A stretch of DNA of 64,000 nt, from the NCBI RefSeq assembly GCF_024521635.1, contig NW_026250413.1, positions 806,001-870,000 on the forward strand, read 5' to 3'. Made by a program: the position numbers and the translations under genes. Of this stretch, positions 41,389-63,607 are shown one piece after another. The notes beneath the pieces are model-generated. The model had not been told where the DNA came from. It saw only the letters and a program-made list of their open reading frames with translations, and did not search any database. The stretch is from Tricharina praecox (taxonomy: Eukaryota). Each line of letters begins with the position of its first letter. Position 1 is the first letter of the stretch.

Positions 41389-41560
41389 TGTAACGGCACA
41401 GTCGGGCAAGGCTCCAGTTAGCGTAGTCGGGCGGGGGATCGGGTTCTGGGTTCGGCAGAGGCAAGACGGGTTCAGGGGACAAGGTGAGGCAGGGCTCAGT
41501 GCAGACGGCAACTGAGAACAGAGGCAGGGACAAGGACTACGGCGCAGACGGCAGCCGAGG
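41389..41560 (-). mobile_element. Truncated family-A variant LTR (U5 end), interrupted by TRIM-D
   Basis: TGTAACGGCAC..GGCAGCCGAGG matches the first ~170 bp of 41974-42483, with variant alleles shared with LTR 63059-63568. Confidence 0.9.
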
Positions 41561-41973
41561 TGTCACAGTTCAGAAATCCTGGCCTTAAGTAGCTACTGGG
41601 ATGATGGCCATCAGCCATCAAAATACCTTTTGGTCGAGTGGTATAGTACTTTCCCAGTGTACTTTATTACAGTTTGATGGCTGCAAAGGTCATGAGTTCA
41701 ATTCCCACTGTGAGCAGTTACATTCCTCTGCTGCAGCGTTGTTCAGGAATTGCATGGCTTACAGTGAGTGACGGTTAATGATTCTTATCATGAACTGTCA
41801 CTCATTGGGGGTTAACTACTTGAAAGCTTCCTGGAGTAAGCCCCTAAAGAGGGGATACTGTCACAGTTCACAAATCCTGGCCTTAAGTAGCTATTGAGAT
41901 GATGGCCATCAGCCATCAAAATACCTTTTGGTCGAGTGGTATAGTACTTTCCCAGTGAACTTTATTACAGTAG
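41561..41973 (+). mobile_element. TRIM-D: non-coding miniature LTR element with tRNA-type Pol III promoter boxes in the LTR (LTR1 41561-41722, internal 41723-41858, LTR2 41859-41973 truncated)
   Basis: Direct repeat starting TGTCAC, LTR1 ending GTTACA; PPT AAAGAGGGG-ATAC immediately before LTR2; box A TGGTCGAGTGG 41631-41641, box B GAGTTCAATTCC 41694-41705. Confidence 0.8.
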
Positions 41974-42380
41974 TGTAACGGCACGGTCGGGCAAGGCTCC
42001 AGGTAGCGAAGTCGGGCTCGGAATCGGGTTCTAGGTTCGGCAGAGACAAGACAGGTTCAGAGGACAAGGTGAGGCAGGGCTCAGTGCGGACGGCAACTGA
42101 GAACAGAGACAGGGACAAGGACTACGGCGCAGACGGCAGCCGAGGCAAGGACAGAGGTAACAGTGATTGAATTAACAAGTTGTTGCGTGAAGAACTAAGT
42201 ACAGAGGGGTAACGGCCCGTTTATATAGGAAACCCTCCACTTCTTCTCGCCACCTGACAATAACCGTGGGCGTGTGCCAGACCCTGAGAAATCCACCTTG
42301 CCAATACCCCGCTTCCGTGACTCATACCCTGCGCAGCCGCACTACCCCTGCTTACTGCACACAGCCCCAATTCCTCCGGC

Positions 42381-45300
42381 TCATTCCTGCATTGCGGCCC
42401 GCGCAGCCCCTTGCACTGCCCCCGCGCTGCCTTCCCACCCCTGTTCCGACTCTTCCTCGAACGTCCCGTCGCGAGCCGTGACAGTAGCCCCTCCTAAGGC
42501 TCGAGTTCCCACGAGAGCAAGTTGAACTGGTCCAGGCTTCGTTGGGTAACGTTGGTGGAAGTCGTCCACTGCCTGTACGTCCACAAGGTTCTCCTCAGGT
42601 TCCCACGTCGGTGCCGTGAAACCCCTCCACTTGACTAGGTACTGGAGTCTTCCCCTCAGCGTTCTGCTGTCCAGCACTTCCTCCACCTCCCATTCTTCTT
42701 GGTCGTTCACAATTACCGGTAACGGTGGCGGCAGGATCTGGCCGGGGAGGGGGTCGTCGGCCGATGCATGGAGGAGGGACACTGGGAAGGTGCGGTGCTT
42801 TTGGATGGTGTTCGGGATGTCCAGTTCGTATGCGTGGGTTCCGATGGCTCGGGTAATCCGATAGGGTCCGTGGTGTTTATTTTCCAGTTTTCGGCTTGGT
42901 CGCTCCGTCCGCCAGTTTCGGCCGTCCACCCATACCATGTCTGTGAGACTGGGACGGGTTTGTGTCGTCGGAGTCTATAGTAAAATCGAGGATAGAATAA
43001 AAGTCAGGGATTTCGATAATTCACAACGGAATAATCTTAAGGGTGTTTGTTCGATGGTTTGTTCGGTGCGATGATTGTAGTTTGTTCGGTTGCCCGCTCG
43101 GTTCGACTTATAGTCGTCCCGATCCTCAGCACGTGATTCCTCTAGAGTGCGGCCTAACGTGGCTCCGTTGCTTCCTTTGCATCGGAGTTCCGCGGCCTAG
43201 CCTTGAGTCGTCGTCAGCTCTCTTCGGATAGTCTTCTCGACTAGGCAGGTGGTAAACACCACGCGCCCAAGATAGATCGGAGTTTCCGAGCAATTATCTC
43301 CCTCATGCGCCGGCAGAGTTCTTCGCTCGTAGTTGTCTGCCCCCATCGGTCGATGTTCGATTCTCTCGTCATAACAGTTTTTTCCTGGATCGGAGTTCCT
43401 ACTGCGGGGCCCTATGATCGGAGATCTCAAAGTCCTCTGGACTGTTATCCCGATCTCCCGCATCTCCGATCACTGTCTAGACTCTGGAATCCGTTTGCTC
43501 CCTCCTTCCTATCCTGTCCTTGATCGCTTCTAACTATCCTTTCGGCTCGCAACTCTATTCTAATCACCCGAACTATTTAATCACATCTCTTGCGACCGTC
43601 GTGACCTCCGATACCTATCGGGGTGTCACAATGTCTCCAGGCTGGAAGGCCGGTGCGTGGGTTCGGTGCCGGTCCGTGTTGTCCTGCTGCCGTGCTTGGG
43701 CGTAGCGCATCTCACTTCGGGCAACGTCGTGGATCTGTTGGAGTCGCTCTGCCGCTGTCTGCGCCTGTCGCTCTTCGTTCGTGTCGGTTCGGATGTCAAG
43801 CTCGAAGTCGCAACGGGGGTGGTAGCCTAGGTTAGCAAAAAACAGGGACAGGGTAGTGGTGCCGGATGCCTGGTTGTTGCCAGCGAACTCTGCTAAGAAT
43901 AGGTAGTCGACCCAGTCGTCCTGCAGGTAGCTCACGTATGCCCGGAGGTGTTGTTCCATTACCGCATTCATCCTCTCTGTTTGACCGTCTGTCTGCGGGT
44001 GGAACGCCATGGAGAGCCGTGCGTCGATCTTGAGGCAAGAGCATAGATGTTTCCAAAATCGTGAGGCAAACTGGGGGCCCCGGTCCGATACGATGGTGTC
44101 GGGTAGTCCGTGGTATCTGAAGATCCGATCGCAAAATAGTTCGGCGAGTCCCTCGGAGGTGATGGTCGTGTTGCAGGGGAGCAGGTGTCGTTGCTTGGTG
44201 AGGCGGTCCACAAATACGCAAATGGCATCGAATCCTTTTGAGGGAGGGAGTCCGGTTACGAAGTCGACGGATATATGTTGCCAGGGTTTCTCGGGTACTG
44301 GGAGTGGGCGGAGCACACCGTAGGGGGCGTGTCTTGTTGCTTTGGTTCGTCTGCAAGTGTGGCAGTTCCTCACGAATCAGTCAACGTCCTTCCGCATCTG
44401 GGGCCATTAGTAGTTCCGGGCCAGGAGTTCCAAGGTTTTTGCTCTTCCGGGATGGCCCATAGCCGGCGGGCCGTGGTGGTCATGGATCAGGCGAAGTCTG
44501 AGTGGGTCGTGTTCAGGAACGTAGAGGCAATCGTGGTAATGTAATTGTCCGTTGACTTCGCTGCAGTCGGCGAGCGAGATGTCCTTTGAGTGGCGTGTTC
44601 CGTTTCTGAGCAGTTGGAGGATCTTGTTCGGCACTGGATCTGCCTGATATGCTTTGGTTATCAGGGTAGAGAGTGCGGGACGGGGTACTTCCAACGGGTT
44701 GGTTGCTGACAATCTCAATTCTTCCGGCAGGTTTTGGGGCTTGAGGACTGCTTGTTGGTTCGCCAGCAGTCTTTCATCCCCCTCCTTAGGGAGGTCTCCG
44801 GACCTCCTTGTCAATGCATCCGGTTTCCCTCCTGCTTTACCAGGTCGATAGACGATTTTGAAGCCGAAACGCGACAGGAATTCCGACCATCGTGCTTGCC
44901 GGCGGTTGAGCAACTTGGTTGACATGAAGTATTCCAGGTTCTTGTGGTCGCTCAGGACTTGGATCGGGTGCGCGGCTCCTTCAAGGTGTGGTCTCCATTC
45001 TTCAAAGGCCCGAACAATCGCCAACAATTCTTTGTCGTAGATTTCGTAATTGCATTCCGCCGGGGAGTGTTTCTTTGAATAGAAGGCAACTGGATGCAAG
45101 ATTCCATCGTCGTCGTACTGGGAGAGGATACCGGCCGATACGTAATCCGAGGCATCAGTTTCCACCACTATTTCTCGGTCGTAGTCGAAATGTCGGAGGG
45201 TCGGGGCGCTAGTGAAGGCAGTCTTGAGAGTGTCGAAGGCTTGCTGTTGGTCAATACCCCATTCGAAGGGGACGTACTTCCCATTTTCCTTTTTTGTCAT

Positions 45301-47060
45301 TGCCGTCAGGGGAGATACCACCTTAGAGTAGTCCTGGATAAAGCGTCGGTAGAAGTTCGCGAAGCCCAAAAAACACTGCACATCCGTTACCGTCGTCGGT
45401 TTTTCCCATTCGAGTACGCAAGAGACTTTGGCAGGATCCATCTTAATACCCTCCGTGGTTATGATCAGGCCCAGGTATTTGACCTCCGTCTGGTGGAAGT
45501 GGCATTTCTCCGGTTTTAAATGCAGTCCGGCCGATGAAAGGGCGCGTAGCACTTTGGTGACCTGTGTTCGGTGTTCTTCCAGTGACGCGCTGTAGATAAA
45601 GACGTGATCTAGGAAGCGGTACAGAAGCCGTCCAGGAACGGTCGTAAAACGTCGTTGATCAGGGCTTGGAAGTCGGCTGGCGCGTTGGTTAGCCCGAAAG
45701 GCATTACCAATGATTCGAAAAGTCCGTAGCGGGTCCGGAAGGCCGTTTTCCATTCCTCCCCTTCTGCCATTCGTACCAGGTTGTAAGCACCGCGGATATC
45801 CAGTGTTGTAAAATACTTTGCACCGGACAGTCGCATCAAGGTTTCCTGGAGCAGGGGAAGTGGGTAGCGGTTCTTGATGGTTCCTTCGTTCAGGCCTCGA
45901 TAGTCCACACACAGTCGCAAGGAGCCGTCCGACTTTTTGACAAACAGGATCGGTGATGCCGCTGGTGATGAGGACGCACGGATAAATCCCTTGCTCAGAT
46001 TGTCGTCAAGCCATTCCTTGAGTGCGACCAGCTCGGTTTTGGAGAGCGAATAGAGGGGTCCGTAAGGGGGCACAAATCCTTCCTTTAGTGGGATCTTGTG
46101 GTCGTATTGCCGATGGGGTGGTAGGTTCTGCGCCAACCTTTCGGAGAAGAGGTGGAGAAATTCGTGATATTCGGGAAGAATGTGGGCGGTTGAGCTCTGT
46201 TTTTCTTCAGATAGAACTTCATTGATCTCCCTCAGGGTCGTGGTGAAGATGGTGAGGTTCTCCTTTTCTGCCATCTGCTGGAAAGGCTTCATTCGGAGGG
46301 CTGAGATTCTGACCGTGGGTTTTCTCTGGTTAGCATCCTGCTGGTGTTCATTGATCTGGGGAGACGTAACGCATCGGGCCACGATGTCGCCGGCCCCCGC
46401 GCTTACCGCTGGCTCCTCCAGAGCTACGTTTGGTGCGAGAGCGTAAGGTAGTTCCGGTGGGTCTGTGGTGATACCGTGGGCTACTGTGGGTACCGTATTG
46501 CAGTGTGCAGTGCAATATTGGGAACCAAAGGTGAGGGTGCGTGAGCTGAATCGGATGGCCACGTCGTGTAGGTCCGTCCAGGGAATTCCGAGTACGATTG
46601 GGTAGTGCCCCAGTTTGGTGACGAACATCGGGAGTTCTTCGTGGTGCTCTTGGATTGACAGGGTGGTGGTGGCAACGTGTGTGATGTCGCCGGACTCGAT
46701 GGGGCGGCCGTCGATGACCTCAAGGGCGCGCGGGGATTCAAGGGGTACAAGGGGTAGGTTGTGATGGCGGGCGAAGTCTTTGTCTACAAAGGCGATTCCG
46801 GTTGCTCCACAATCGATCAGCGCATGCGTGGCAATGGTTTTGTCACCAAACGAAAGGTTACATAGTACAACGAGATGTTTTCCTTCCATTGATGATTCCT
46901 CCACTACCATCCCAGACACTGACAAATTGGACAAACGAAAATGAGTAGAAAAGGGAGAAAAAGACTTATCCTGGGTACGACCAACAACGGTGCCATCAAG
47001 CAGTTGTTGGTCTAGGCTTTTCCCGACTGCCCTTGGTTGTCGCCACAATTCTGGTTGCAA
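42381..47060 (-). pseudogene. pol: A1 pol (PR LIDCGA, RT, RNase H, integrase, GPY/F, chromodomain), broken by a frameshift ~45610, stops at 44407 and 44377, and a solo LTR
   Basis: ORF pieces 45609-47060, 44407-45912, 43615-44373, 42381-42938. Confidence 0.95.
42942..43630 (-). mobile_element. Solo LTR of family B inside A1 integrase
   Basis: 689 bp TGT..ACA, near-identical to 48826-49514 and 55506-56193; TSD ATGTC at 42937-41 and 43631-35. Confidence 0.97.
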
Positions 47061-48202
47061 TTGTGGTATGGGTGGTCGGGGGTCAGGGTTCCAGGTTGCT
47101 CGTGCATCAGCTGTGCAGCTGCGGCACGAAAAGGGTTCCGATTCTTGTTCGGGCAGTGTCGGGCCATGTGGCCACTGCCTCCACAGTATAGGCAGCGACC
47201 CTCGCGGAGACGCGCAGCTCGTTCTTGATCAGAGATCTTGCGACTGTTCGCGCTGAGGTCCATAGCCCCTGGGGCTGTTCCGGTTGCAGTGGTTGCCGGT
47301 GGTGTACTGTTATGGGTTTGATTCCTCGGCGGAGCTGGAGGTTGCGGGGTGTGGTTTTGTCGCGGGGGGTTGCGGCGGCCTTCACGGAGTTTGAGGGCAC
47401 GTAGCTCGGAATCGAGGCTCTGGCAGAGAGCCACGAACTGGTTGTAGGTGAGTCCCTGAGTGCGGCCCACCAGTTGTCGGTGGAGCTCGATGGAGACTCC
47501 TTCGCGGAGTGCATCGAGTTTGGCATGCTCGTCCCAGTTCAGCTTGGACACGAGTCTTTGAAACTCCGCAAAGTAAGACGTAAAGTCCTTGTTCCCTTGC
47601 TTGAGGCGGTGAAGTTCGGCGCGTGCGGTGGCTGCTGGGTCGGGATCGCCGAAGGCGTTTTCGAGGATGGTGACCATGGCATCGGCGTCGGTCAAGCTGA
47701 TCACGTTGTTCTGGATGTACGGCAGTATCTGGGCTTGGGCACGGCCTTCGAGACGGTTGAAGGTGTAGGCCATTCTAAGTGCTGGGGACGGGAAATGGGT
47801 AGGGTCGCTGTATAGTTTGAGTCGAAGCTGGGCAACGAACCCTTCGAGCTTCTCTCGAGTGCCATCGAACATGGCTGGCTCCGGGACGCGCTCGGCGCGG
47901 CCCTGGGGTTGGGTTTCTAGTGTGGCGAGACGGTTGGCGATACGACGGGAGTTGGCAAGTTGTTCTTCGAGGTCGTCTATTCGCCAGGTGGGTGCTGCTG
48001 TGGGGGATTGGGTGATTGCACGGGCTATGATTTGGAACTGGCTATACAACCCCGACAGTGTTGCATTGTTGGCGGGTGAGTCGTGGTTAACGATGATCTC
48101 GAGTTGTTCGTAGACGGTGGCGGGAATTTCTCGACAGTAGGGGGGTGCCACCAGTACTTCCTCCTGCTGGGGAGGGTCTGGTGCTGGGGTATTGGTGGCC
48201 AT
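47012..48202 (-). CDS. gag: A1 Gag (396 aa, CCHC knuckle)
   Basis: PEPAMFDGTREKLEGF, LKQGNKDFTSYFAEF, CLYCGGSGHMARHC; open ORF. Confidence 0.95.
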   Translation of the reverse strand: MATNTPAPDPPQQEEVLVAPPYCREIPATVYEQLEIIVNHDSPANNATLSGLYSQFQIIARAITQSPTAAPTWRIDDLEEQLANSRRIANRLATLETQPQGRAERVPEPAMFDGTREKLEGFVAQLRLKLYSDPTHFPSPALRMAYTFNRLEGRAQAQILPYIQNNVISLTDADAMVTILENAFGDPDPAATARAELHRLKQGNKDFTSYFAEFQRLVSKLNWDEHAKLDALREGVSIELHRQLVGRTQGLTYNQFVALCQSLDSELRALKLREGRRNPPRQNHTPQPPAPPRNQTHNSTPPATTATGTAPGAMDLSANSRKISDQERAARLREGRCLYCGGSGHMARHCPNKNRNPFRAAAAQLMHEQPGTLTPDHPYHNCNQNCGDNQGQSGKA

Positions 48203-49656
48203 GGTTCTTCGCTAGGTGGAGAGATGGGCGACGCAACAAAATGTAACGGCACGGTCGGGCAAGGCTCCAGGTAGCGAAGTCGGGCTCGGAATCGGGTTCT
48301 AGGTTCGGCAGAGACAAGACAGGTTCAGAGGACAAGGTGAGGCAGGGCTCAGTGCGGACGGCAACTGAGAACAGAGACAGGGACAAGGACTACGGCGCAG
48401 ACGGCAGCCGAGGCAAGGACAGAGGTAACAGTGATTGAATTAACAAGTTGTTGCGTGAAGAACTAAGTACAGAGGGGCAACGGCCCGTTTATATAGGAAA
48501 CCCTCCACTTCTTCTCGCAACCTGACAAAAACCGTGGGCGTGTGCCAGACCCTGAGAAATCCACCTTGCCAGTACCCCGCTTCCGTGACTCATACCCTGC
48601 GCAGCCGCACTACCCCTGCTTACTGCACACAGCCCCAATTCCTCCGGCTCATTCCTGCATTGCCGCCCGCGCAGCCCCTTGCACTGCCCCCGCGCTGCCT
48701 TCCCACCCCTGTTCCGACTCTTCCTCGAACGTCCCGTCGCGAGCCGTGACACCGTGCTTGGGCGTAGCGCATCTCACTGCGGGCCACGTCATAAATCTGC
48801 TGGAGCCGCTCTGCCGCTGTCTGTATGTGAGACTGGGACGGGTTGGTGCCGTCGGAGTCTATGGTGATATCGAGGATAGAATAAAAGTCAGGGATTTCGA
48901 CAATTCACAACGGAATAATCTTAAGGGTGTTTGTTCGATGATTTGTTCGGTGCGATGATTGTAGTTTGTTCGGTTGCCCGCTCGGTTCGACTTATAGTCG
49001 TCCCGATCCTCAGCACGTGATTCCTCAAGAGTGCGGCCTAACGTGGCTCCGTTGCTTCCTTTGCATCGGAGTTCCGCGGCCTAGCCTTGAGTCGTCGTCA
49101 GCTCTCTTCGGATAGTCTTCTCGACTAGGCAGGTGGTAAACACCACGCGCCCAAGATAGATCGGAGTTTCCGAGCAATTATCTCCCTCATGCGCCGGCAG
49201 AGTTCTTCGCTCGAAGTTGTCTGCCCCCATCGGTCGATGTTCGATTCTCTCGTCATAACAGTTTTTTCCTGGATCGGAGTTCCTACTGCGGGGCCCTATG
49301 ATCGGAGATCTCAAAGTCTTCTGGACTGTTATCCCGATCTCCCGCATCTCCGATCACTGTCTAGACTCTGGAATCCGTTTGCTCCCTCCTTCCTATCCTG
49401 TCCTTGATCGCTTCTAACTATCCTTTCGGCTCGCAACTCTATTCTAATCACCCGAACTATCTAATCACATCTCTTGCGACCGTCGTGACCTCCGATACCT
49501 ATCGGGGTGTCACACCATCTCCCCTCCCACGAGGCTTCGGCCCGAAGCACCCAAGTCCTCGCCTTTATCCTAACTTGATAACTGTGGATGAAGTCCTCCA
49601 ACCCCTTCATCCTACTACCTGCCCGAGTTCGAGAAAAACCATATGGGAAAAAACTC

Positions 49657-52600
49657 TTACTCATCTGTGAGCCGGTAGTCCCTCGGCGCATCGGGATTTT
49701 TGCGATGAAACTCGCGTAGCTTTTCCCGACCGCCTACTGAGAAGTTGTCGAATGGCTCGTTCGTCCAGCCCCGTCGTTCGGGGTAGTTGAGCCATTTGAC
49801 GAGGTAGAGCACTCGTCGACCTTTCTTCGAGCTGCCCATAACCTCATCGACGTCGTATTCTTCGTTGCCTTCCACATCATCGGCCTCTCGTAAGATTTGA
49901 GAGGGATCCGGTGGTGCTCGGGTGCCGGCTCGGAACGGTTCAACGAGCGAGACGTGAAAGACATTATGAATCTTCCACTTCCTTGGCAGAGTGAGCTTGA
50001 CAGCGAGCGGCGATACGATCTTCTCGATTTGGAAGGGACCATGGTTCTTGTGGTCCAACTTCCGCGAGGGTCGGCGGGTTTGAATGTTCCGCCCATTGAG
50101 CATTACCAAGTCTCCTACTTGATAAGCCGGTGCCTCCTGACGATGTTGATCTGCATACTTGCGCATTCGTTCGCGCGTTCGTTCGAGGGTCTTGATGTTT
50201 TCCTCGTGGACTGTATGCATCCAGTGAGCGTAGACCTTGCTGGCGGGGTTGAGAGAATTTGCCGCAGCAGGGTTTCTCGCCGACGGGTGGTATCCGAAAT
50301 TCGCATAGAAGGGCGACATTCCGGTTGCCGATGTAACCGAGTTGTTGTAGGCAAACTCAGCCATCGGTAGGAGATTCACCCAATCGTTCTGTTCGTAGTT
50401 GACGAAGGAGCGGAGGTATGCTTCGATCGTCTGGTTGAGGCGTTCGGTTTGTCCATCCGTCTGTGGGTGGAACGCTGTTGACATCCGGGGCTTAATGCCT
50501 AGCAGCCGGATGAATTCTTTCCATGTACCCGAGGTAAACCGTGAGTCTCGGTCCGACACTATGTCTGCTGGTAATCCGTGAAAGCGCCATATCTCGCGGG
50601 CAAAAATCTTCGCGAGATCCTCGGCTATCTTTCCATCCTTAGGTAGGGGGATGAAATGCGCCATCTTGGTGAAGCGGTCGACGACCACCCATAGCTGGTC
50701 GCATCCGTTGGATTCCGGTAGGTCGGTAATGAAGTCCATGGCTATTGATTGCCATGGGGTGTATGGTAACTCGAGGGGATTGAGTAGTCCATACGGCTGG
50801 TGCCTTGTTGCTTTGTCCTTCTGACACTGCGCGCAACTCCGGACGAAGTCTATAATCTGCTCGTCCATCTTTGGCCACCAGAAATTACGTCGGATAAGTT
50901 CGATAGTCTTGTCCTGGCCCATATGCCCCGCGACTTTCGTATCGTGTTCCGACTCGAGGATGTGTCTGACGAGTTCCTTATCGTCTGGTACCCATAGCCT
51001 TTCTTTCCTATACAGGCACCCCTCTTCCATCCTCAAAATCCTGGCCTTTCGGCCCATCCTGCCAGAGTCCCTACTCTCGGCGGCCAGTTCCCAGGCCTTT
51101 CGGCCCTCCGACTCAGTGTCCTTCTGAGCCGCGTCCTCGTTCGTGTCCTTGATGCTGCTCAGAGCCTCCTGATACCCAGCATCTTCCTTTCCTGCCTTCC
51201 TGACCCAACCCAGAAATTCTTCATTCCACTTTGGCACGGGGATTGAATGTAGCCGAGTTGACGAAACCAGAAACACGGTGCTCTCGCCTCCGGTGCTGAT
51301 TGATGAAACTCTCGGATCGCCGCCTGCAAAGTGTGATTTATGCAGGATCGTCGTAATCGGCTGATCTTCACCCCCCCCTTTTTCAGGGCGGTACTCCGGG
51401 CGCCTGGATAATGCGTCAGGCTTGCCGTTCTGGCTGCCGGGCCGGTAGTAGATTTTGAAGTCGATGCCAGCGAGTTCTTGTGCCCATCTCGCCTGCCGTC
51501 GATTGAGTACTTTCGTGGTTGTGAAGTACTGAAGGTTCTGGTGGTCGCTGTACACCTGGATCTGGTGTTTTGCTCCCTCAACGTATTGCCGCCAGCGTTT
51601 GAAAGAGTCTACTATCGCGAGTAGTTCCTTATCGTGAATCTCAAAGTTGATTTCGGCTGGGGTAAACTTTCTTGAGTGGAACGCAACTGGGTGTAACTTC
51701 CCATCCTCTGTCCTTTGAGACAGGACCGCGCCCAACGCGAAGTCCGAAGCGTCGGATTCCACCACGACAGGTAATTCTGGGTTGAAGTGCCCGAGAATCG
51801 GTGCCGTGGTGAACCTAGACTTCAGCTCCTCGAAGGCCAGTTCCATCTCCGCTGTCCATCTCCAATCCTTCCCTTTTTCTTTTGTGCTCTCGGTCAAGGG
51901 TCTCGTGATCTTTGAGAATTCCTTGATGAAGCGCCTGTAAAAATTGGCGAACCCAAGAAAGGCTTGTACTTCCTTCAGGGACCGCGGCGCCTCCCACGAG
52001 AGCACAGATTCCACCTTGTCCTTAGCCATCTCAATTCCATCTTGGGATATCACGTATCCTAGGAACTCGACTCTCCCTGTCGACCAGACACACTTCTCTG
52101 GTGAGATTGCCAACTTATTTTCTTCCAACCTCTTTAGTACCTCGATGACTATCTTGTCATGCTCCTCGTGCGTCTTCGCATAGACGAGGAGGTCATCGAT
52201 GTACGCGACCAGTCCCAGGTCCAACATATCCCAAAATATGTGGTTAATCATGTCCTGAAACGTCGCTGGAGCGTTGGTCAGCCCAAACGGCATGACCAAA
52301 AACTCAAACAGTCCGTATCGACAGCGGAAAGCCGTCTTCCACTCGTCACCTTCTTTGATGCGGATAAGGTGATAGCCATTCTTCAGATCAATCTTGGTGA
52401 AGACTTTCGCACCCCTGACTCGGTCTTGCAACTCTGCCATGATCGGGAGTGGGTAGCGATTGGCTACGGTAATCTTGTTGATACCGCGATAGTCGACACA
52501 CAATCGGAGACCCCTGCCGTGCGCCTTTAGTACAAATAATATCGGCGCCCCGGCTGGTGATTTGGATCTTCGAATCTTGCCTGTCTGGAGCATCTCCTTG

Positions 52601-53466: not shown

Positions 53467-55466
53467 AAATCCTCCGGCTCACTCTCATTCCTTTCCCAGA
53501 ATGGAGGGGCCTCCGTCATTGCTTCATCCTCCACCACAACCGCCGCAGCCTTGTGTTGCTTGGACCTCGGTCGAGTGGGTTCGGCATCCTGGGTGTCCCG
53601 CTTTCTCTTTGTCACGGATGACACCTTTGGACTCTCGGGGAGTTCGGTACCCGCGACTGTTTTTCTGGCGTAGCATTGGAAGGTTCGGTGGCCGTCTCGT
53701 CCGCAACGCCAACAGTCGCACTTGGATGCTTTGTGGGCATCGATCTCCTTCTGGGGAACCCCTACCAGAGCCTCCTTTGCTCCTGCGTAGATGTCCCCTT
53801 CCCTTGTCCTTCCCTTCCTGACTCCTGTTGCTTCCTTGGCCTTTCGGCCCTCCGGGGACTCCCCGCTTTCCTTGCGGCCCCCGGGGTCTCTTCCCTTTCC
53901 TTGGCCCTGCCGGCCGTTGCCAGGTCCCTTCCGGTCGCCGCCGGAACCCTGGCTACCCGATCCCCCTTTCCTCATTGCCCTTGCCTTTTTCAGCGCGTCC
54001 CGTCGTTCCACATGGTTGCCAGCCCTGAGCACCGTTTCCAGGAAGTCTTCATCGTCTTCGTAGGGTCCATGGTGCTGGTTGAAGCACATATCAACGATGT
54101 CGGTAGTCATGGCCTGGTTGACTATGTCTTGTAGCGGTTCGCCGGTGGCGCGAGCGATCATGTTGAGCGATCGGAAGGAGGTCATGTAAGCCTGAATGTC
54201 TCCTTTGTATTCGAGGGCCCACATCCTTCTTAATGCGTTCGCTCCTTCCTGCGTGTCGCGGTACGCCTCCTTGAGTGCCTCTTGGTACGCCTGCCAGGTA
54301 TCTTCCAAGTGTAGCTGCCTCAGGCTTTTTCGACGGGCCTGATGCCATTCTGCCGCTGTCCCTTCCAGTCGGGATCCCACCCACACTATCTTCTGCTGCT
54401 CGTTTGTCTCTGGGTGGAACTCAAGATATTCTTCAACTGAGTCCCACCATGGACGGAAGGCTGTTCTTTGCTTGCCATCGAACGGCTTGGGCTCTTTAAT
54501 TTTAAGCTTGATGGCCCTCGGGTTCGATGCGGAGACGGCAGCAGCGATGATCCGAGCGAAGCGACTCTCTTCGTCTTCGTCGTCTTCTCTTGGTAGCGGA
54601 GCGTGTCGGTGACGGGGCGGCGAACGACGCGGCAAGGGGATGGAATCGTCATCATCCGATGGTCCCTCATCCGAGGGATCACCTCCAAGGTTAGTCACCG
54701 GACGTCTTGGGGGTGGAGGAGGAGGGGACATTCCTGCACCTGCCGGAGTTTCCCTTGTTGCTGACCTTTCTGCCCGCGATCCTCCTCTTGGGGTAGTGTT
54801 TACCCACTCCGGGGCCTTTTCCTTCGCCTTCCCTGTCCTTACCTCTACAGCCTTCAATTTTTTCTCTGCTCGAGCGATTTTTTCCTTGATTCGCTGTTGC
54901 TCCTTGTAGAGGTATTCTGCCTTCTCTTCCTGTTTCCCTGCCCAAATTTCCACGTTGCGGTTGTACACCGCTTGCTCCCTGCGTTGTTCGACTTGCGCCG
55001 TTTCGAGGAACACGATGGCGTCTTGTAGCCGAGCGTTTGCGACGCTTTGCAACTCGCAGTTGTCTTCGTCTTTCTGGTTACGTTCTCGAATGACTGCCCA
55101 TACGTCGCTGCTCAGGGCGTGCGTCGCGTTCGCTACCGTTGACACCTCGGTTCGAAGCCATTCTGTATTCATTTCGGCATTGTGAGCGTAGAGGTTGTAC
55201 ACATACTTGACCCCATCGCAGAGTTGTTCGTAGTTCCTTCTGATTTCCTGCATTCGGGAGTCCTCTTCGTTGAACTTCTGATCGCATGCTTGGTAAAGCT
55301 GGCGCAGGTCTCTTTGTGCCGTTTGGTATTGGTGGTTCATCAGCCTGAGCCAGGCTGCCGGGTTTCGTACTTCGACGGTTTCGGATGCTTGCGGGATGCT
55401 AACGAGCGCATTGCTCAGGGTCTGAGAAAGTTCGAGGCGGAGCATGTCGAGGTTTGAGGAGGACAT
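53463..55466 (-). CDS. gag: B Gag (667 aa; coiled-coil N-extension, CCHC knuckle)
   Basis: IKEPKPFDGK, SRLEGTAAEWH, CWRCGRDGHRTFQC. Confidence 0.93.
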   Translation of the reverse strand: MSSSNLDMLRLELSQTLSNALVSIPQASETVEVRNPAAWLRLMNHQYQTAQRDLRQLYQACDQKFNEEDSRMQEIRRNYEQLCDGVKYVYNLYAHNAEMNTEWLRTEVSTVANATHALSSDVWAVIRERNQKDEDNCELQSVANARLQDAIVFLETAQVEQRREQAVYNRNVEIWAGKQEEKAEYLYKEQQRIKEKIARAEKKLKAVEVRTGKAKEKAPEWVNTTPRGGSRAERSATRETPAGAGMSPPPPPPRRPVTNLGGDPSDEGPSDDDDSIPLPRRSPPRHRHAPLPREDDEDEESRFARIIAAAVSASNPRAIKLKIKEPKPFDGKQRTAFRPWWDSVEEYLEFHPETNEQQKIVWVGSRLEGTAAEWHQARRKSLRQLHLEDTWQAYQEALKEAYRDTQEGANALRRMWALEYKGDIQAYMTSFRSLNMIARATGEPLQDIVNQAMTTDIVDMCFNQHHGPYEDDEDFLETVLRAGNHVERRDALKKARAMRKGGSGSQGSGGDRKGPGNGRQGQGKGRDPGGRKESGESPEGRKAKEATGVRKGRTREGDIYAGAKEALVGVPQKEIDAHKASKCDCWRCGRDGHRTFQCYARKTVAGTELPESPKVSSVTKRKRDTQDAEPTRPRSKQHKAAAVVVEDEAMTEAPPFWERNESEPEDF

Positions 55467-56995
55467 TTTCGATAGAAATCGGTGACTGTAACCTTAAGAT
55501 TATAGTGTGAGACTGGGACGGGTTTGTGTCGTCGGAGTCTATAGTAAAATCGAGGATAGAATAAAAGTCAGGGATTTCGATAATTCACAACGGAATAATC
55601 TTAAGGGTGTTTGTTCGATGGTTTGTTCGGTGCGATGATTGTAGTTTGTTCGGTTGCCCGCTCGGTTCGACTTATAGTCGTCCCGATCCTCAGCACGTGA
55701 TTCCTCTAGAGTGCGGCCTAACGTGGCTCCGTTGCTTCCTTTGCATCGGAGTTCCGCGGCCTAGCCTTGAGTCGTCGTCAGCTCTCTTCGGATAGTCTTC
55801 TCGACTAGGCAGGTGGTAAACACCACGCGCCCAAGATAGATCGGAGTTTCCGAGCAATTATCTCCCTCATGCGCCGGCAGAGTTCTTCGCTCGAAGTTGT
55901 CTGCCCCCATCGGTCGATGTTCGATTCTCTCGTCATAACAGTTTTTTCCTGGATCGGAGTTCCTACTGCGGGGCCCTATGATCGGAGATCTCAAAGTCCT
56001 CTGGACTGTTATCCCGATCTCCCGCATCTCCGATCACTGTCTAGACTCTGGAATCCGTTTGCTCCCTCCTTCCTATCTGTCCTTGATCGCTTCTAACTAT
56101 ACTTTCGGCTCGCAACTCTATTCTAATCACCCGGACTATCTAATCACATCTCTTGCAACCGTCGTGACCTCCGATACCTATCGGGGTGTCACACTGTACC
56201 TGTTGCTCTTCGTTCGTGTCAGTTCAGATGTCAAGCTCAAAGTCGCAACGGGGGTGGTAGCCTAGGTTGGCAAAAAACGGGGACAGGGTGGTGGTGTCGG
56301 ATGCCTGGTTGTTGCCAGCAAACTCTGCCAAGAATAGGTAGTCGACCCAGTCATCCTGCAGGTAGCTCACATATGCTCGGAGGTGTTGTTCCATTACTGC
56401 ATTCATTCTCTCTGTTTGACCGTCCGTCTGCGGGTTGAACGCCGTGGAGAGCCGTGCGTCGATCTTGAGGCAAAAGCATAGATGTTTCTAAAATCGTGAT
56501 GCAAACTGGGGGCCCCGGTCCGTTACGATGGTGTCGGGTAGTCCGTGGTATCTGAAGATTCGATCGCAGAATAGTTCGGCGAGCCCCTCGGAGGTGATGA
56601 TCGTTTTGCAGGGGAGCAGGTGTCGTTGCTTGGTGAGGCGGTCCACTAACAAGCAAATGGCATCGAATCCTTTTGAGGGAGGGAGTCCGGTTACGAAGCC
56701 GACGGAGATATGTTGCCAGGGTTTCTCGGGTACTGGGAGTGTCACGGCTCGCGACGGGACGTTCGAGGAAGAGTCGGAACAGGGGTGGGAAGGCAGCGCG
56801 GGGGCAGCGCAAGGGGCTGCGCGGGCGGCAATGCAGGAATGAGCCGGAGGAATTGGGGCTGTGTGCAGTAAGCAGGGGTAGTGCGGCTGCGCAGGGTATG
56901 AGTCACGGAAGCGGGGTACTGGCAAGGTGGATTTCTCAGGGTCTGGCACACGCCCACGGTTTTTGTCAGGTTGCGAGAAGAAGTGGAGGGTTTCC

Positions 56996-57003
56996 TATAT
57001 AAA
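56996..57003 (+). promoter_or_regulatory. TATA box of the family-A LTR
   Basis: TATATAAA, present in all four full A LTRs, 39 nt upstream of the predicted self-primer/TSS. Confidence 0.65.
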
Positions 57004-57288
57004 CGGGCCGTTGCCCCTCTGTACTTAGTTCTTCACGCAACAACTTGTTAATTCAATCACTGTTACCTCTGTCCTTGCCTCGGCTGCCGTCTGCGCCGTA
57101 GTCCTTGTCCCTGTCTCTGTTCTCAGTTGCCGTCCGCACTGAGCCCTGCCTCACCTTGTCCTCTGAACCTGTCTTGTCTCTGCCGAACCTAGAACCCGAT
57201 TCCGAGCCCGACTTCGCTACCTGGAGCCTTGCCCGACCGTGCCGTTACATTTTGTTGCGTCGCCCATCTCTCCACCTAGCGAAGAACC

Positions 57289-58479
57289 ATGGCCACCAAT
57301 ACCCCAGCACCAGACCCTCCCCAGCAGGAGGAAGTACTGGTGGCACCCCCCTACTGTCGAGAAATTCCCGCCACCGTCTACGAACAACTCGAGATCATCG
57401 TTAACCACGACTCACCCGCCAACAATGCAACACTGTCGGGGTTGTATAACCAGTTCCAAATCATAGCCCGTGCAATCACCCAATCCCCCACAGCAGCACC
57501 CACCTGGCGAATAGACGACCTCGAAGAACAACTTGCCAACTCCCGTCGTATCGCCAACCGTCTCGCCACACTAGAAACCCAACCCCAGGGCCGCGCCGAG
57601 CGCGTCCCGGAGCCAGCCATGTTCGATGGCACTCGAGAGAAGCTCGAAGGGTTCGTTGCCCAGCTTCGACTCAAACTATACAGCGACCCTACCCGTTTCC
57701 CGTCCCCAGCACTTAGAATGGCCTACACCTTCAACCGTCTCGAAGGCCGTGCCCAAGCCCAGATACTGCCGTACATCCAGAACAACGTGATCAGCTTGAC
57801 CGACGCCGATGCCATGGTCACCATCCTCGAAAACGCCTTCGGCGATCCCGACCCAGCAGCCACCGCACGCGCCGAACTTCACCGCCTCAAGCAAGGGAAC
57901 AAGGACTTTACGTCTTACTTTGCGGAGTTTCAAAGACTCGTGTCCAAGCTGAACTGGGACGAGCATGCCAAACTCGATGCACTCCGCGAAGGAGTCTCCA
58001 TCGAGCTCCACCGACAACTGGTGGGCCGCACTCAGGGACTCACCTACAACCAGTTCGTGGCTCTCTGCCAGAGCCTCGATTCCGAGCTACGTGCCCTCAA
58101 ACTCCGTGAAGGCCGCCGCAACCCCCCGCGACAAAACCACACCCCGCAACCTCCAGCTCCGCCGAGGAATCAAACCCATAACAGTACACCACCGGCAACC
58201 ACTGCAACCGGAACAGCCCCAGGGGCTATGGACCTCAGCGCGAACAGTCGCAAGATCTCTGATCAAGAACGAGCTGCGCGTCTCCGCGAGGGTCGCTGCC
58301 TATACTGTGGAGGCAGTGGCCACATGGCCCGACACTGCCCGAACAAGAATCGGAACCCTTTTCGTGCCGCAGCTGCACAGCTGATGCACGAGCAACCTGG
58401 AACCCTGACCCCCGACCACCCATACCACAATTGCAACCAGAATTGTGGCGACAACCAAGGGCAGTCGGGAAAAGCCTAG
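57289..58479 (+). CDS. gag: A2 Gag (396 aa)
   Basis: Differs from A1 Gag at only two residues (S/N, H/R). Confidence 0.95.
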   Translation: MATNTPAPDPPQQEEVLVAPPYCREIPATVYEQLEIIVNHDSPANNATLSGLYNQFQIIARAITQSPTAAPTWRIDDLEEQLANSRRIANRLATLETQPQGRAERVPEPAMFDGTREKLEGFVAQLRLKLYSDPTRFPSPALRMAYTFNRLEGRAQAQILPYIQNNVISLTDADAMVTILENAFGDPDPAATARAELHRLKQGNKDFTSYFAEFQRLVSKLNWDEHAKLDALREGVSIELHRQLVGRTQGLTYNQFVALCQSLDSELRALKLREGRRNPPRQNHTPQPPAPPRNQTHNSTPPATTATGTAPGAMDLSANSRKISDQERAARLREGRCLYCGGSGHMARHCPNKNRNPFRAAAAQLMHEQPGTLTPDHPYHNCNQNCGDNQGQSGKA

Positions 58480-61400
58480 ACCAACAACTGCTTGATGGCA
58501 CCGTTGTTGGTCGTACCCAGGATAAGTCTTTTTCTCCCTTTTCTACTCATTTTCGTTTGTCCAATTTGTCAGTGTCTGGGATGGTAGTGGAGGAATCATC
58601 AATGGAAGGAAAACATCTCGTTGTACTATGTAACCTTTCGTTTGGTGACAAAACCATTGCCACGCATGCGCTGATCGATTGTGGAGCAACCGGAATCGCC
58701 TTTGTAGACAAAGACTTCGCCCGCCATCACAACCTACCCCTTGTACCCCTTGAATCCCCGCGCGCCCTTGAGGTCATCGACGGCCGCCCCATCGAGTCCG
58801 GCGACATCACACACGTTGCCACCACCACCCTGTCAATCCAAGAGCACCACGAAGAACTCCCGATGTTCGTCACCAAACTGGGGCACTACCCAATCGTACT
58901 CGGAATTCCCTGGACGGACCTACACGACGTGGCCATCCGATTCAGCTCACGCACCCTCACCTTTGGTTCCCAATATTGCACTGCACACTGCAATACGGTA
59001 CCCACAGTAGCCCACGGTATCACCACAGACCCACCGGAACTACCTTACGCTCTCGCACCAAACGTAGCTCTGGAGGAGCCAGCGGTAAGCGCGGGGGCCG
59101 GCGACATCGTGGCCCGATGCGTTACGTCTCCCCAGATCAATGAACACCAGCAGGATGCTAACCAGAGAAAACCCACGGTCAGAATCTCAGCCCTCCGAAT
59201 GAAGCCTTTCCAGCAGATGGCAGAAAAGGAGAACCTCACCATCTTCACCACGACCCTGAGGGAGATCAATGAAGTTCTATCTGAAGAAAAACAGAGCTCA
59301 ACCGCCCACATTCTTCCCGAATATCACGAATTTCTCCACCTCTTCTCCGAAAGGTTGGCGCAGAACCTACCACCCCATCGGCAATACGACCACAAGATCC
59401 CACTAAAGGAAGGATTTGTGCCCCCTTACGGACCCCTCTATTCGCTCTCCAAAACCGAGCTGGTCGCACTCAAGGAATGGCTTGACGACAATCTGAGCAA
59501 GGGATTTATCCGTGCGTCCTCATCACCAGCGGCATCACCGATCCTGTTTGTCAAAAAGTCGGACGGCTCCTTGCGACTGTGTGTGGACTATCGAGGCCTG
59601 AACGAAGGAACCATCAAGAACCGCTACCCACTTCCCCTGCTCCAGGAAACCTTGATGCGACTGTCCGGTGCAAAGTATTTTACAACACTGGATATCCGCG
59701 GTGCTTACAACCTGGTACGAATGGCAGAAGGGGAGGAATGGAAAACGGCCTTCCGGACCCGCTACGGACTTTTCGAATCATTGGTAATGCCTTTCGGGCT
59801 AACCAACGCGCCAGCCGACTTCCAAGCCCTGATCAACGACGTTTTACGACCGTTCCTGGACGACTTCTGTACCGCTTCCTAGATCACGTCTTTATCTACA
59901 GCGCGTCACTGGAAGAACACCGAACACAGGTCACCAAAGTGCTACGCGCCCTTTCATCGGCCGGACTGCATTTAAAACCGGAGAAATGCCACTTCCACCA
60001 GACGGAGGTCAAATACCTGGGCCTGATCATAACCACGGAGGGTATTAAGATGGATCCTGCCAAAGTCTCTTGCGTACTCGAATGGGAAAAACCGACGACG
60101 GTAACGGATGTGCAGTGTTTTTTGGGCTTCGCGAACTTCTACCGACGCTTTATCCAGGACTACTCTAAGGTGGTATCTCCCCTGACGGCAATGACAAAAA
60201 AGGAAAATGGGAAGTACGTCCCCTTCGAATGGGGTATTGACCAACAGCAAGCCTTCGACACTCTCAAGACTGCCTTCACTAGCGCCCCGACCCTCCGACA
60301 TTTCGACTACGACCGAGAAATAGTGGTGGAAACTGATGCCTCGGATTACGTATCGGCCGGTATCCTCTCCCAGTACGACGACGATGGAATCTTGCATCCA
60401 GTTGCCTTCTATTCAAAGAAACACTCCCCGGCGGAATGCAATTACGAAATCTACGACAAAGAATTGTTGGCGATTGTTCGGGCCTTTGAAGAATGGAGAC
60501 CACACCTTGAAGGAGCCGCGCACCCGATCCAAGTCCTGAGCGACCACAAGAACCTGGAATACTTCATGTCAACCAAGTTGCTCAACCGCCGGCAAGCACG
60601 ATGGTCGGAATTCCTGTCGCGTTTCGGCTTCAAAATCGTCTATCGACCTGGTAAAGCAGGAGGGAAACCGGATGCATTGACAAGGAGGTCCGGAGACCTC
60701 CCTAAGGAGGGGGATGAAAGACTGCTGGCGAACCAACAAGCAGTCCTCAAGCCCCAAAACCTGCCGGAAGAATTGAGATTGTCAGCAACCAACCCGTTGG
60801 AAGTACCCCGTCCCGCACTCTCTACCCTGATAACCAAAGCATATCAGGCAGATCCAGTGCCGAACAAGATCCTCCAACTGCTCAGAAACGGAACACGCCA
60901 CTCAAAGGACATCTCGCTCGCCGACTGCAGCGAAGTCAACGGACAATTACATTACCACGATTGCCTCTACGTTCCTGAACACGACCCACTCAGACTTCGC
61001 CTGATCCATGACCACCACGGCCCGCCGGCTATGGGCCATCCCGGAAGAGCAAAAACCTTGGAACTCCTGGCCCGGAACTACTAATGGCCCCAGATGCGGA
61101 AGGACGTTGACTGATTCGTGAGGAACTGCCACACTTGCAGACGAACCAAAGCAACAAGACACGCCCCCTACGGTGTGCTCCGCCCACTCCCAGTACCCGA
61201 GAAACCCTGGCAACATATATCCGTCGACTTCGTAACCGGACTCCCTCCCTCAAAAGGATTCGATGCCATTTGCGTATTTGTGGACCGCCTCACCAAGCAA
61301 CGACACCTGCTCCCCTGCAACACGACCATCACCTCCGAGGGACTCGCCGAACTATTTTGCGATCGGATCTTCAGATACCACGGACTACCCGACACCATCG

Positions 61401-63161
61401 TATCGGACCGGGGCCCCCAGTTTGCCTCACGGTTTTGGAAACATCTATGCTCTTGCCTCAAGATCGACGCACGGCTCTCCACGGCGTTCCACCCGCAGAC
61501 AGACGGTCAAACAGAGAGAATGAATGCGGTGATGGAACAACACCTCCGAGCATACGTGAGCTACCTGCAGGATGACTGGGTCGACTACCTATTCTTGGCA
61601 GAGTTTGCTGGCAATAACCAGGCATCCGACACTACCACCCTGTCCCCGTTTTTTGCTAACCTAGGCTACCACCCCCGTTGCGACTTCGAGCTTGACATCC
61701 GAACGGACACAAACGAAGAGCGACAGGCACAGACAGCGGCAGAGCGACTCCAGCAGATTCATGACGTTGCTCGCAGTGAGATGCGATACGCCCAAGCACG
61801 GCAGCAGGACAACACGGACCGGCACCGAATGTGACACCCTGGTCGCAGTCGGCCCGACTTCAGAGTCCGGCTGCTTACCAACGGGAGTTCAGGAAAGATA
61901 GTTAGATAGATCGGGGAACAGGAGGGGATTTTTTAGATTAGTCGTAGCTAGTCAGAGACGAGATAGGAAGGAAGGAAGCAAACGGAACCAGAGTCTAGGT
62001 GGGATCAGAGGCGCAGCGATACGCACGAAAAGTCCGATACAGTCATCCTTGACTTGAGGCAGGCGAATCGCGGAACAAGCGCAGAGGAAACTCTGATCGG
62101 AGAAAAACCACTATGACGAGTGTTGCCCCTCTTCTCGCGTCTTAAGCAAATAAGAGCCGTGCCGAAAGGCGCAGCCGTTGCCCAGCGGAGAGATAGCTGA
62201 AACCGGACTATGCTCGGGTAAGGATTGGTGCGCCATACCTGCCTAGTTTGTATAAACTATCCTGAAGGCTTACGACGACTCTGATGACATGGCGGAGAAA
62301 GTCTCCGCACCAAGTGCAGAGATTTCACGCCAGGGGTTCCATCCGGCAACAAACTACGGCAACGGCTGGCACGTGACTCGATCACATCACCCAACTATAT
62401 AGACTTCCGACGACACGACGAAAGATTCATCATCAGAATCAGCGACCAGAAAACCATCGACACTACCCCTTAAGATTATTCCGCTTGTGAAAGAAAGAAT
62501 ACTATCTATCTTCATTCTTATCCTATTCTATCAATCGACTCCGACGACCGAAATCGTTCCAGTCTCACACCGAACCCACGCACCGGCCTTCCAGCCTGGA
62601 GACTTGGTATGGATGGACGGCCGAAACTGGCGGACGGAGCGACCAAGCCGAAAACTGGAAAACAAACACCACGGACCCTATCGGATTACCCGAGCCATCG
62701 GAACCCACGCATACGAACTGGACATCCCGAACACCATCCAAAAGCACCGCACCTTCCCAGTGTCCCTCCTCCATGCATCGGCCGACGACCCCCTCCCCGG
62801 CCAGATCCTGCCGCCACCGTTACCGGTAATTGTGAACGACCAAGAAGAATGGGAGGTGGAGGAAGTGCTGGACAGCAGAACGCTGAGGGGAAGACTCCAG
62901 TACCTAGTCAAGTGGAGGGGTTTCACGGCACCGACGTGGGAACCTGAGGAGAACCTTGTGGACGTACAGGCAGTGGACGACTTCCACCAACGTTACCCAA
63001 CGAAGCCTGGACCAGTTCAACTTGCTCTCGTGGGAACTCGAGCCTTAGGAGGGGCTACTGTCACGGCTCGCGACGGGACGTTCGAGGAAGAGTCGGAACA
63101 GGGGTGGGAAGGCAGCGCGGGGGCAGTGCAAGGGGCTGCGCGGGCGGCAATGCAGGAATGA
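58431..63161 (+). pseudogene. pol: A2 pol with the same frameshift (~59875) and stops (61082, 61112) as A1, plus solo LTR-C
   Basis: ORF pieces 58431-59882, 59579-61084, 61118-61834, 62570-63161. Confidence 0.95.
61830..62569 (+). mobile_element. Solo LTR-C (740 bp, distant relative of LTR-B) inside A2 integrase
   Basis: TGTGACACCC..CCAGTCTCACA; TSD CCGAA at 61825-29 and 62570-74; shares CCTTAAGATTATTCCG and CCTGCCTAGT blocks with B. Confidence 0.93.
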
Positions 63162-63607
63162 GCCGGAGGAATTGGGGCTGTGTGCAGTAAGCAGGGGTAG
63201 TGCGGCTGCGCAGGGTATGAGTCACGGAAGTGGGGCACTGGCAAGGTGGATTTCTCAGGGTCTGGCACACGCCCACGGTCATTGTCAGGTTGCGGGAAGA
63301 AGTGGAGGATTTTCTATATAAACGGGCCGTTGCCCCTCTGTATTTAGTTCTTCACGCAACAACTTGTTAATTCAATCACTGTTACCTCTGTCCTTGCCTC
63401 GGCTGCCGTCTGCGCCGTAGTCCTTGTCCCTGCCTCTGTTCTCAGTTGCCGTCTGCACTGAGCCCTGCCTCACCTTGTCTCCTGTACCCGTCTTGCCCCT
63501 ACCGAACCCAGAACCCGATCCCCAGCCCGACTTCGCTACCTGGAGCCTTGCCCGACCGTGCCGTTACACTTTGTTGCGTCCCCCATCTCTCCACCTAGCG
63601 AACTACC

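Follow-up and report, generated by a model that had tools for sequence, protein, structure and literature searches.

A cluster of nested insertions in the integrase linker region of a chromovirus family in Tricharina praecox

We analyzed a 64,000-nt stretch of the genome of Tricharina praecox (assembly GCF_024521635.1, contig NW_026250413.1, positions 806,001–870,000 of the forward strand; hereafter "the window," whose own numbering is used throughout), in which long terminal repeat (LTR) retrotransposons have inserted repeatedly into one another. Approximately 37 kb of the window is occupied by compactly arranged housekeeping genes (SPT16, Mcl1/WDHD1, VPS11, COG4, the RuvB-like TIP49, RPC82, and a GPI transferase), and the sequence from 41.4 kb to the end of the window, a 22-kb block, consisted of LTR retrotransposons alone when examined by self-BLAST. 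The GC content was approximately 0.50–0.60 throughout the window. Three Ty3/gypsy chromovirus families, designated here A, B, and C, make up this nest beside the housekeeping genes. Several LTR ends in this nest are joined to family-A copies within one short segment of the integrase gene, and the present analysis confirmed that this local cluster of insertions is real.

Families A and B were classified as Ty3/gypsy chromoviruses from their Pfam domains (gag, reverse transcriptase [RT], RNase H, zinc finger, rve, SH3_Tf2-1, and Chromo). The order in the family-A copy A2 was Retrotrans_gag, RVT_1, RT_RNaseH, Integrase_H2C2, and rve, and that in the pol open reading frame of family B was aspartyl protease (a weak match), RVT_1, RT_RNaseH, Integrase_H2C2, and rve. 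In both families, PF00385 Chromo followed SH3_Tf2-1, with a match above the curated cutoff in A (E = 1.1e-12) and below it in B (E = 3.5e-4). Family C is represented in the window by a solo LTR alone, and no full-length C element occurs there. The C LTR has termini in common with the B LTR, and the last ~120 bp of the two are 75% alike.

The map of the nest (Table 1) is based on self-BLAST, junction print-outs, and pairwise difference counts. A0, an old family-A copy, was the target of a full-length B element, of A1 (same orientation), and of A2 (opposite orientation). Later insertions brought a B element into A1 and a C element into A2, and each of these has since collapsed to a solo LTR. A0 survives as a relic of 615 bp in total, equivalent to A2 61187–61801. 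The two LTRs of A1 (3′ LTR, 41974–42483; 5′ LTR, 48242–48751) are 510 bp long and 99.0% alike, and those of the full-length B element (48826–49514 and 55506–56193; 689 bp) are 97.8% alike. Both reading frames of the full-length B are open, with a gag of 676 aa and a pol of 1273 aa (protease, RT, RNase H, integrase, SH3, and chromodomain); judged from these frames and from the 2.2% difference between its LTRs, this element may still be autonomous. The solo B LTR shared 98.1–99.0% identity with the two LTRs of the full-length B. A1 and A2 are dead copies with a common frameshift in RT near 59876 and a common in-frame stop between 61084 and 61115.

Table 1. Features of the retrotransposon nest (TSD, target-site duplication; PBS, primer-binding site)
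Feature	Position	Strand	Details
A1 3′ flank, not A0	41389–41971	−	Last 172 bp of another A LTR (41389–41560) and the X-Y-X unit
A1, family-A Ty3/gypsy chromovirus	41974–48751	−	6084 bp without insert
Solo LTR of family B inside A1	42942–43630	− (orientation of A1)	689 bp; TSD GACAT (minus strand) at 42937–42941 and 43631–43635
A0 relic, distal piece	48752–48825	−	74 bp, equal to A2 61728–61801, one TSD copy included; stops at the first base of the A1 5′ LTR
Full-length family-B chromovirus	48826–56193	−	7368 bp; TSD TACAG (minus strand)
A0 relic, proximal piece	56194–56739	−	546 bp, equal to A2 61187–61732; ~94% identity to A2; adjoins the first base of the A2 5′ LTR at 56739/56740
A2, family-A copy, inverted arm relative to A1	56740–63568	+	6084 bp without insert
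Mosaic patch	61432–61786	+	355 bp; 22 of 26 A1/A2 differences; ends right before the insertion sites
Insertion cluster in A2 coordinates	61728–62605	+	61728–61829 and 62575–62605; 133 bp once one TSD copy and the solo C LTR are removed
Solo LTR of family C inside A2	61830–62569	+ (orientation of A2)	740 bp; TSD CCGAA at 61825–61829 and 62570–62574
Chimeric A2 3′ LTR, then A3 PBS and gag	63059–64000	+	LTR at 63059–63568; tandem interior-LTR-interior layout

The original prediction placed four independent insertions, in three host copies and with unrelated TSDs, within about 130 bp of the family-A integrase, and the individual junctions were all found where it had placed them. The full-length B element in A0 is flanked by CTGTA (TACAG on the minus strand) at 56194–56198 and 48821–48825; the site is equivalent to A2 61728–61732, where A2 itself reads CACAG. 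The junction of the A1 5′ LTR lies in A0 at the equivalent of A2 61797–61801, with A0 ending in ...CAAGCACGG at 48752 and the LTR (TGTCACGG) following directly, its first base at 48751. The solo C LTR in A2 (termini TGTGACACC...GTCTCACA) is flanked by CCGAA, and the solo B LTR in A1 is flanked by ATGTC at a site equal to A2 62601–62605, 31 bp past the C site. In the junction print-outs, the three 5-bp duplications were perfect and showed no likeness to one another. The count of four independent insertions stands in part: three are fully documented with TSDs, but A1 presents an exact LTR-end junction without a TSD pair. Likewise, the three host copies A0, A1, and A2 are indeed present, yet they amount to a 615-bp relic and two near-identical inverted arms.

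In other respects, the insertions were distinguished by how completely their ends could be read. The full-length B, the solo B, and the solo C all have TG...CA LTR termini and a 5-bp TSD; A1 and A2 do not, each having an exact 5′ LTR end in A0 and a 3′ flank without a match. The identity of the solo B as a solo LTR follows from its match to the B LTRs, and that of the solo C from its termini and TSD. A1 and A2 serve reciprocally as the empty site for each other's insert; furthermore, a joint skipping exactly 745 bp, corresponding to the empty site of the solo C, was found in contigs of three of four public sequencing runs. For A1, a matching TSD is lacking since the sequence beyond its 3′ end does not belong to A0. 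A fifth A-LTR junction, that of the A2 5′ LTR on A0 at 56739/56740 (equal to 61187), is in the opposite orientation and has no partner junction. The four inserts of the cluster all have the orientation of their host; when the junctions from the public contigs were added on our own reading of the strands, 8 were in the same orientation and 3 in the opposite, which was not significant. Finally, 5091 bp spanning the LTR, gag, RT, RNase H, and integrase core of A1 and A2 align without gaps, in agreement with the claim that the gag-RT-RNase H region of both copies is untouched.

The cluster was also said to fall in the helical segment between the integrase catalytic core and the GPY/F region, and this location was supported both by the Pfam limits in A2 (rve at ~61199–61495 and SH3_Tf2-1 from ~62598) and by structure prediction. 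In the AlphaFold model of a relative, P0001 (84% identity), one long helix extends over residues 207–243 and the SH3-like strands begin at residue 256, and the four sites project onto residues 212–255. This model was built from a 44-sequence alignment and had a mean predicted local distance difference test (pLDDT) score of 77.8; a single-sequence fold (pLDDT 33.8) was discarded. The model thus supports the view that the DNA of the cluster encodes a predicted linker helix between the catalytic core and the SH3 domain, together with the loop that follows it.

To evaluate the cluster against chance, we simulated uniform insertion into a 6.08-kb element. Three TSD-flanked insertions fell within 128 bp with P = 1.3e-3 and four junctions with P = 3.8e-5; the latter value became 1.8e-4 when the B insertion in A0 was restricted to the surviving 617 bp. 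When five junctions were considered, the probability that four or more fell within 128 bp was likewise 1.8e-4. A cluster of this kind is unlikely under uniform insertion.

Local features of the site that could attract insertions were then considered. The four target sites showed no common motif by eye. The GC content of the cluster is 0.63–0.64, making it the GC-richest 147-bp stretch of pol and placing it in the top 4–5% of windows. GC content as a proxy for nucleosome occupancy was nevertheless rejected as an explanation: the site is a local GC peak, but the GC percentiles of 12 known junctions (those in the window and the public joints listed) were mixed, ranging from 0.25 to 0.91. A central polypurine tract was also rejected, as purine runs similar to the polypurine tract of the element (AGGAGGGG) occur at 59726 and 60704, with none at the cluster. 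Targeting through tRNA genes or other RNA polymerase III (Pol III) genes found no support either, ARAGORN detecting no tRNA gene in the window and Rfam giving no match in 40000–64000.

Among known systems, the chromodomain of the chromovirus MAGGY reportedly directs integration into heterochromatin. The elements described here are similar in that the integrases of A and B have a chromodomain following the SH3 domain and both families are inserted in other, presumably silenced, elements; in contrast, chromodomain tethering accounts for a preference at the scale of kilobases or chromatin domains, not for a 133-bp window. Narrower windows are found in yeasts, where Ty3 uses Pol III start sites, Ty1 the DNA upstream of tRNA genes, and Tf1 promoters bound by Sap1. 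These windows measure tens to hundreds of bases and are set by a bound protein or a nucleosome rather than by sequence. The present cluster shares with them the occurrence of several insertions with unrelated TSDs in a narrow window, but its target lies within the coding region of a retrotransposon, with no Pol III gene or known binding site at the cluster.

The closest parallel comes from plants. In the portions drawn on here, the survey of 1491 nested pairs from 12 plant genomes by Jedlicka et al. (2019, Mob DNA 10:50, PMC6911290) describes nested LTR retrotransposons as unevenly distributed over their host elements and predicted nucleosome occupancy as raised at the insertion sites; the Ty3/gypsy pattern was alike in young and old pairs, which its authors take as evidence of targeting. 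Repeated nested pairs were most common in Physcomitrella, the commonest being Phygy in Tcn1-type chromoviruses, and these repeated pairs include six nested elements between the integrase and chromodomain regions (INT and CHR), four of the six in the orientation of the host. Sites in similar copies were close but always at least 50 bp apart. As far as these portions of the survey go, the common ground with the window is that Ty3/gypsy elements insert into one another, older members of the same family included, and that regions are favored with no strict motif; the Physcomitrella insertions between INT and CHR are very close to the pattern seen here. On the same portions, the differences are that the plant work is a statistical survey, as against three to five events in one fungal-type window, and that here three LTR families meet in one 133-bp stretch. 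Non-random nesting is thus already known from plants, and the cluster described here is a further example. No fungal study of nesting positions or hot spots within LTR retrotransposons was found in the open-access literature, and the portions of a paper on einkorn centromeres consulted here (PMC11302176) yielded nothing on nesting positions.

From the in-window statistics and this published plant precedent, we infer a targeting step, in which chromoviral integrases have a regional, non-sequence-specific preference for integration inside silenced copies; we hold this reading tentatively, as one whose chances fall a little short of even. It agrees with the lack of a common motif at the four sites, with the chromodomains of A and B, and with the matching orientation of inserts and hosts. 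Four of the five LTR-end junctions would then lie within 133 bp as a result of regionally non-uniform integration by chromodomain integrases in silenced elements. Tethering of the integrase to heterochromatin would operate at the kilobase scale, and the fine position would be set by local accessibility, such as a nucleosome-sized window or DNA shape, with no sequence motif. Subsequent LTR–LTR recombination with neighboring A copies would have removed the outer parts of A0, which would explain why neither A1 nor A2 has a matching TSD.

A rival account is chance combined with ascertainment, that is, roughly uniform insertion into dead A copies in a window that was noticed since some of the insertions lie close together. 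The solo C and the solo B, at most 31 bp apart and the sole pair on fully observable targets, give P = 0.010, and the events in A0 add little once their survivorship is allowed for. Very many windows were scanned, the other junctions of A, B, and C are scattered among the joints listed, and the GC and motif checks supply no independent reason for a hot spot. On the other hand, the combined conditional P is ~2e-4, none of the four inserts is reversed relative to its host, and the documented non-uniformity of nesting in plants makes the uniform null itself unlikely. Taken together, we regard chance as rather unlikely, although it is a rival of some weight.

Several observations weigh against an integration preference at this site. 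The sample consists of three to five events in one window that was chosen for its striking look, and two of these events are conditioned by the survival of A0. Because A0 is 615 bp lying between two A LTR ends, the position of B in A0 is partly set by survival, and its location is conditioned on those 615 surviving bp. For A1, a second junction with A0 is missing; CTAC and an unrelated repeat come after its 3′ LTR. Purifying selection alone explains why elements accumulate within one another beside 37 kb of housekeeping genes. Moreover, in the portions of the plant survey drawn on here, the integrase domain proper is among the least-hit regions and the 3′ untranslated region is the most hit (PMC6911290).

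Junctions outside the assembly point in the same direction. Contigs of the four public runs were aligned to 48700–64000 at 90% likeness, and the results given here concern the joints (15 of 53) and loose ends (24 of 480) that were listed. The start of the C LTR (61830) was joined to B internal sequence at 52675 and 53737, to A gag at 58106, and, with 33 letters between, to an A LTR near 63421. The end of the B LTR (55506) was joined to an A LTR at 63404, the start of the A LTR (48751) to a B LTR at 49359, and the end of an A LTR to an A LTR at 63285. None of these extra nested junctions, at least six to seven in number, lies within the 133-bp cluster; therefore, A, B, and C are not confined to the site. 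Most of the listed loose ends were rejected as insertion junctions, since a comparison by eye showed them to be diverged homologues; those at 57569 and 60573 look like real breaks.

Related elements in metagenomes count against the preference as well, although with almost no power. A scan with the integrase core-plus-linker peptide returned 230 relatives, and the best 80 loci (836 kb) were taken. Their protein identity was 78–89% and their DNA identity about 73–76%, from which it follows that they come from other species. None of the 80 loci was interrupted at the site, and two chain analyses together with junction print-outs revealed four nested insertions elsewhere: a 2.8-kb insert at the same site in L039 and L047 (~A2 59.14–59.32 kb), a 719-bp B-like solo LTR in L030 (2345–3063, at ~A2 60477), a 743-bp B-like solo LTR in L046 (8475–9217, TSD CCAAG, equal to A2 60573–60577), and a 7.2-kb LTR element in L028 (~A2 60.76–60.84 kb). 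An apparent hit at the site in L030 was rejected because it proved to be a tandem interior-LTR-interior arrangement. This query could return only loci with core and linker intact, and ~36 bp of the cluster lay outside it, so the absence of interrupted loci was not counted against a hot spot. At the insertion rate of the related loci, ~0.05 events are expected in an unbiased 36 bp, and this sample is therefore without power against a hot spot. No same-species copies were found among viral contigs or in a protein collection (139–443 aa range), in which the top identity was 84–85%.

The two B-like solo LTRs of L030 and L046 occupy the RNase H end of A-like copies, at positions ~96 bp from each other, and a loose end of run X7 breaks at exactly 60573 in the family of the window, preceded by unrelated letters. 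The sites at ~60477 and 60573 may represent a second nesting cluster, or a coincidence.

The relationship between A1 and A2 bears on whether the surviving insertions are a fair sample of those that occurred. The two copies form a 5.1-kb inverted repeat (43662–48752 and 56739–61829) around an 8-kb spacer, with 99.9% identity over 4.7 kb. They differ at 4 of 4693 positions in 56739–61431, at 22 of 355 in 61432–61786 (the mosaic patch), and at 2 of 453 in 62606–63058. Transitions account for 19 of the 22 patch differences, nearly all of which occupy a single codon position. A0 has the A2 base at 13 of these sites and the A1 base at 7, and it was therefore ruled out as the donor of the patch. The 3′ LTR of A1 has 5 private changes and the remainder of A1 almost none; therefore, the copies have not simply decayed after insertion. 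This pattern may reflect either arm-to-arm conversion everywhere except beside heterologous inserts, or recent copies of one defective master, one of them with a recombinant patch that would derive from another A lineage.

The 3′ LTR of A2 is a further sign of exchange between copies. Over positions 1–172, this chimeric LTR shows no difference from the A2 5′ LTR type, save for a change at position 69 that is private to the A2 5′ LTR; over positions 173–510, it shows 21 differences, or 6% divergence. It is followed by the PBS and gag of a further copy, A3, whose gag is 82% identical to that of A2. A2 lacks a 3′ TSD because the chimeric LTR is shared with A3 in the tandem arrangement. The chimeric LTR together with the A3 interior bears the signature of an LTR–LTR exchange with a downstream copy that would have deleted the 3′ flank of A2. 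Inversion between A1 and A2 was rejected as the cause of the missing TSDs, because re-pairing the flanks (GGGAG with CTACT, and CACGG with the A3 interior) gives no TSD.

Both kinds of rearrangement have known counterparts. Palindrome arms are kept alike through arm-to-arm gene conversion, and LTR–LTR exchange gives rise to recombinant and tandem LTR elements. The 5-kb inverted arms A1 and A2 resemble such palindromes in being alike except for the patch beside heterologous inserts; they differ in that conversion is deduced here from the pattern of differences only, which two transpositions from a defective master also fit. Recombinant and tandem elements are matched by A2 and A3, which share one chimeric LTR, and by the metagenome locus L030 (1185–11842), whose interior-LTR-interior-LTR layout is that of A2 and A3, although its interiors are only ~70% alike.

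These rearrangements raise another alternative to an integration preference, namely that insertions were evenly spread and the others were erased by conversion between the A1 and A2 arms and by LTR–LTR deletions. The survivors would then mark the stretch in which two different inserts block conversion, together with the piece of A0 trapped between A1 and A2. The excess of differences in the patch adjoining the sites agrees with such a retention bias, as do the frameshift and stop common to A1 and A2, the private changes confined to the A1 3′ LTR (which exclude clock-like decay), the loss of the TSD from both A1 and A2, and the chimeric 3′ LTR of A2. However, conversion gives no reason for the inserts to lie 31 bp apart rather than anywhere in 6 kb, and a conversion tract across both sites could still swap one insert for the other. 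Past the inserts, moreover, the arms are again 99.6% identical (62606–63058), and two recent transpositions from one defective master, one with a recombinant patch, explain the identity equally well. We consider it quite improbable that retention bias produced the cluster.

In a bolder proposal, the linker-helix DNA of family A would be a nucleosome-sized, orientation-biased landing pad for at least three chromovirus families and, at the same time, a local recombination hot spot, with the 355-bp patch as its footprint. A fixed fragile or accessible site within silenced retrotransposon copies would then channel both integration and ectopic repair. We think this combined role unlikely.

It could also be argued that the nest was mis-joined among near-identical repeats and that some of the junctions are not chromosomal. 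A block with 5-kb inverted repeats (99.5% identity) and the B LTR in triplicate is hard to assemble, but mis-joins do not produce exact LTR termini and a perfect 5-bp TSD at each insertion. In addition, one contig from run X5 has its start at exactly 61185, the point at which the A0/A2-LTR junction and ordinary A copies cease to share words (2-bp overlap). This start lends weak support to the A0/A2-LTR junction outside the present assembly, weak because the run may be the source sample of the window itself. We regard an assembly artefact as very improbable.

If the integration preference is true, a fine-scale hot spot in the coding region of a retrotransposon would provide a defined 130-bp substrate for studying what chromodomain integrases read. 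With this substrate one could ask whether, beyond H3K9 methylation, they respond to a bound factor, nucleosome position, or DNA shape. Such a hot spot would also be relevant to the question of how nests of mobile elements expand while sparing neighboring genes. The interest of the site would rise only if the same 133 bp proved to be hit in other copies genome-wide. The locus as it stands is a clean, well-resolved example of nested chromoviruses, and it shows how LTR–LTR exchange, tandem elements, and near-identical inverted arms erase TSDs and mislead LTR-based dating.

Some minor observations were made on the elements of the nest. A small LTR-like unit, X-Y-X (41561–41971), separates the A1 3′ LTR from the final 172 bp of another A LTR; in it, two 113-bp direct repeats (41561–41673 and 41859–41971), 96% alike and with TG...CA-like ends, surround 185 bp. 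The unit has no TSD and no match elsewhere in the window or in the 80 metagenome loci; a tRNA-like nature was rejected, as neither ARAGORN nor Rfam gave a match. In one contig of run X5, just two letters separate the final base of an A LTR (57249) from an A LTR's first base (56740), an arrangement resembling a 2-LTR circle junction or two LTRs placed end to end. In run X17, 26,886 of 126,171 contigs aligned to the 15-kb stretch, and this library is therefore strongly enriched for the three retrotransposon families.

Lastly, a 29-bp stretch of the B LTR (LTR positions 591–619; window 55575–55603) recurs with 100% identity at 14 places among the 80 related loci; its 11 carriers include L001, L013, L016, L017, L037, and L046 (two places), and one further locus has a perfect match of 27 bp. 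The remainder of the B LTR gives no alignment between species. From this pattern of conservation, the 29-bp stretch is a candidate conserved cis element.

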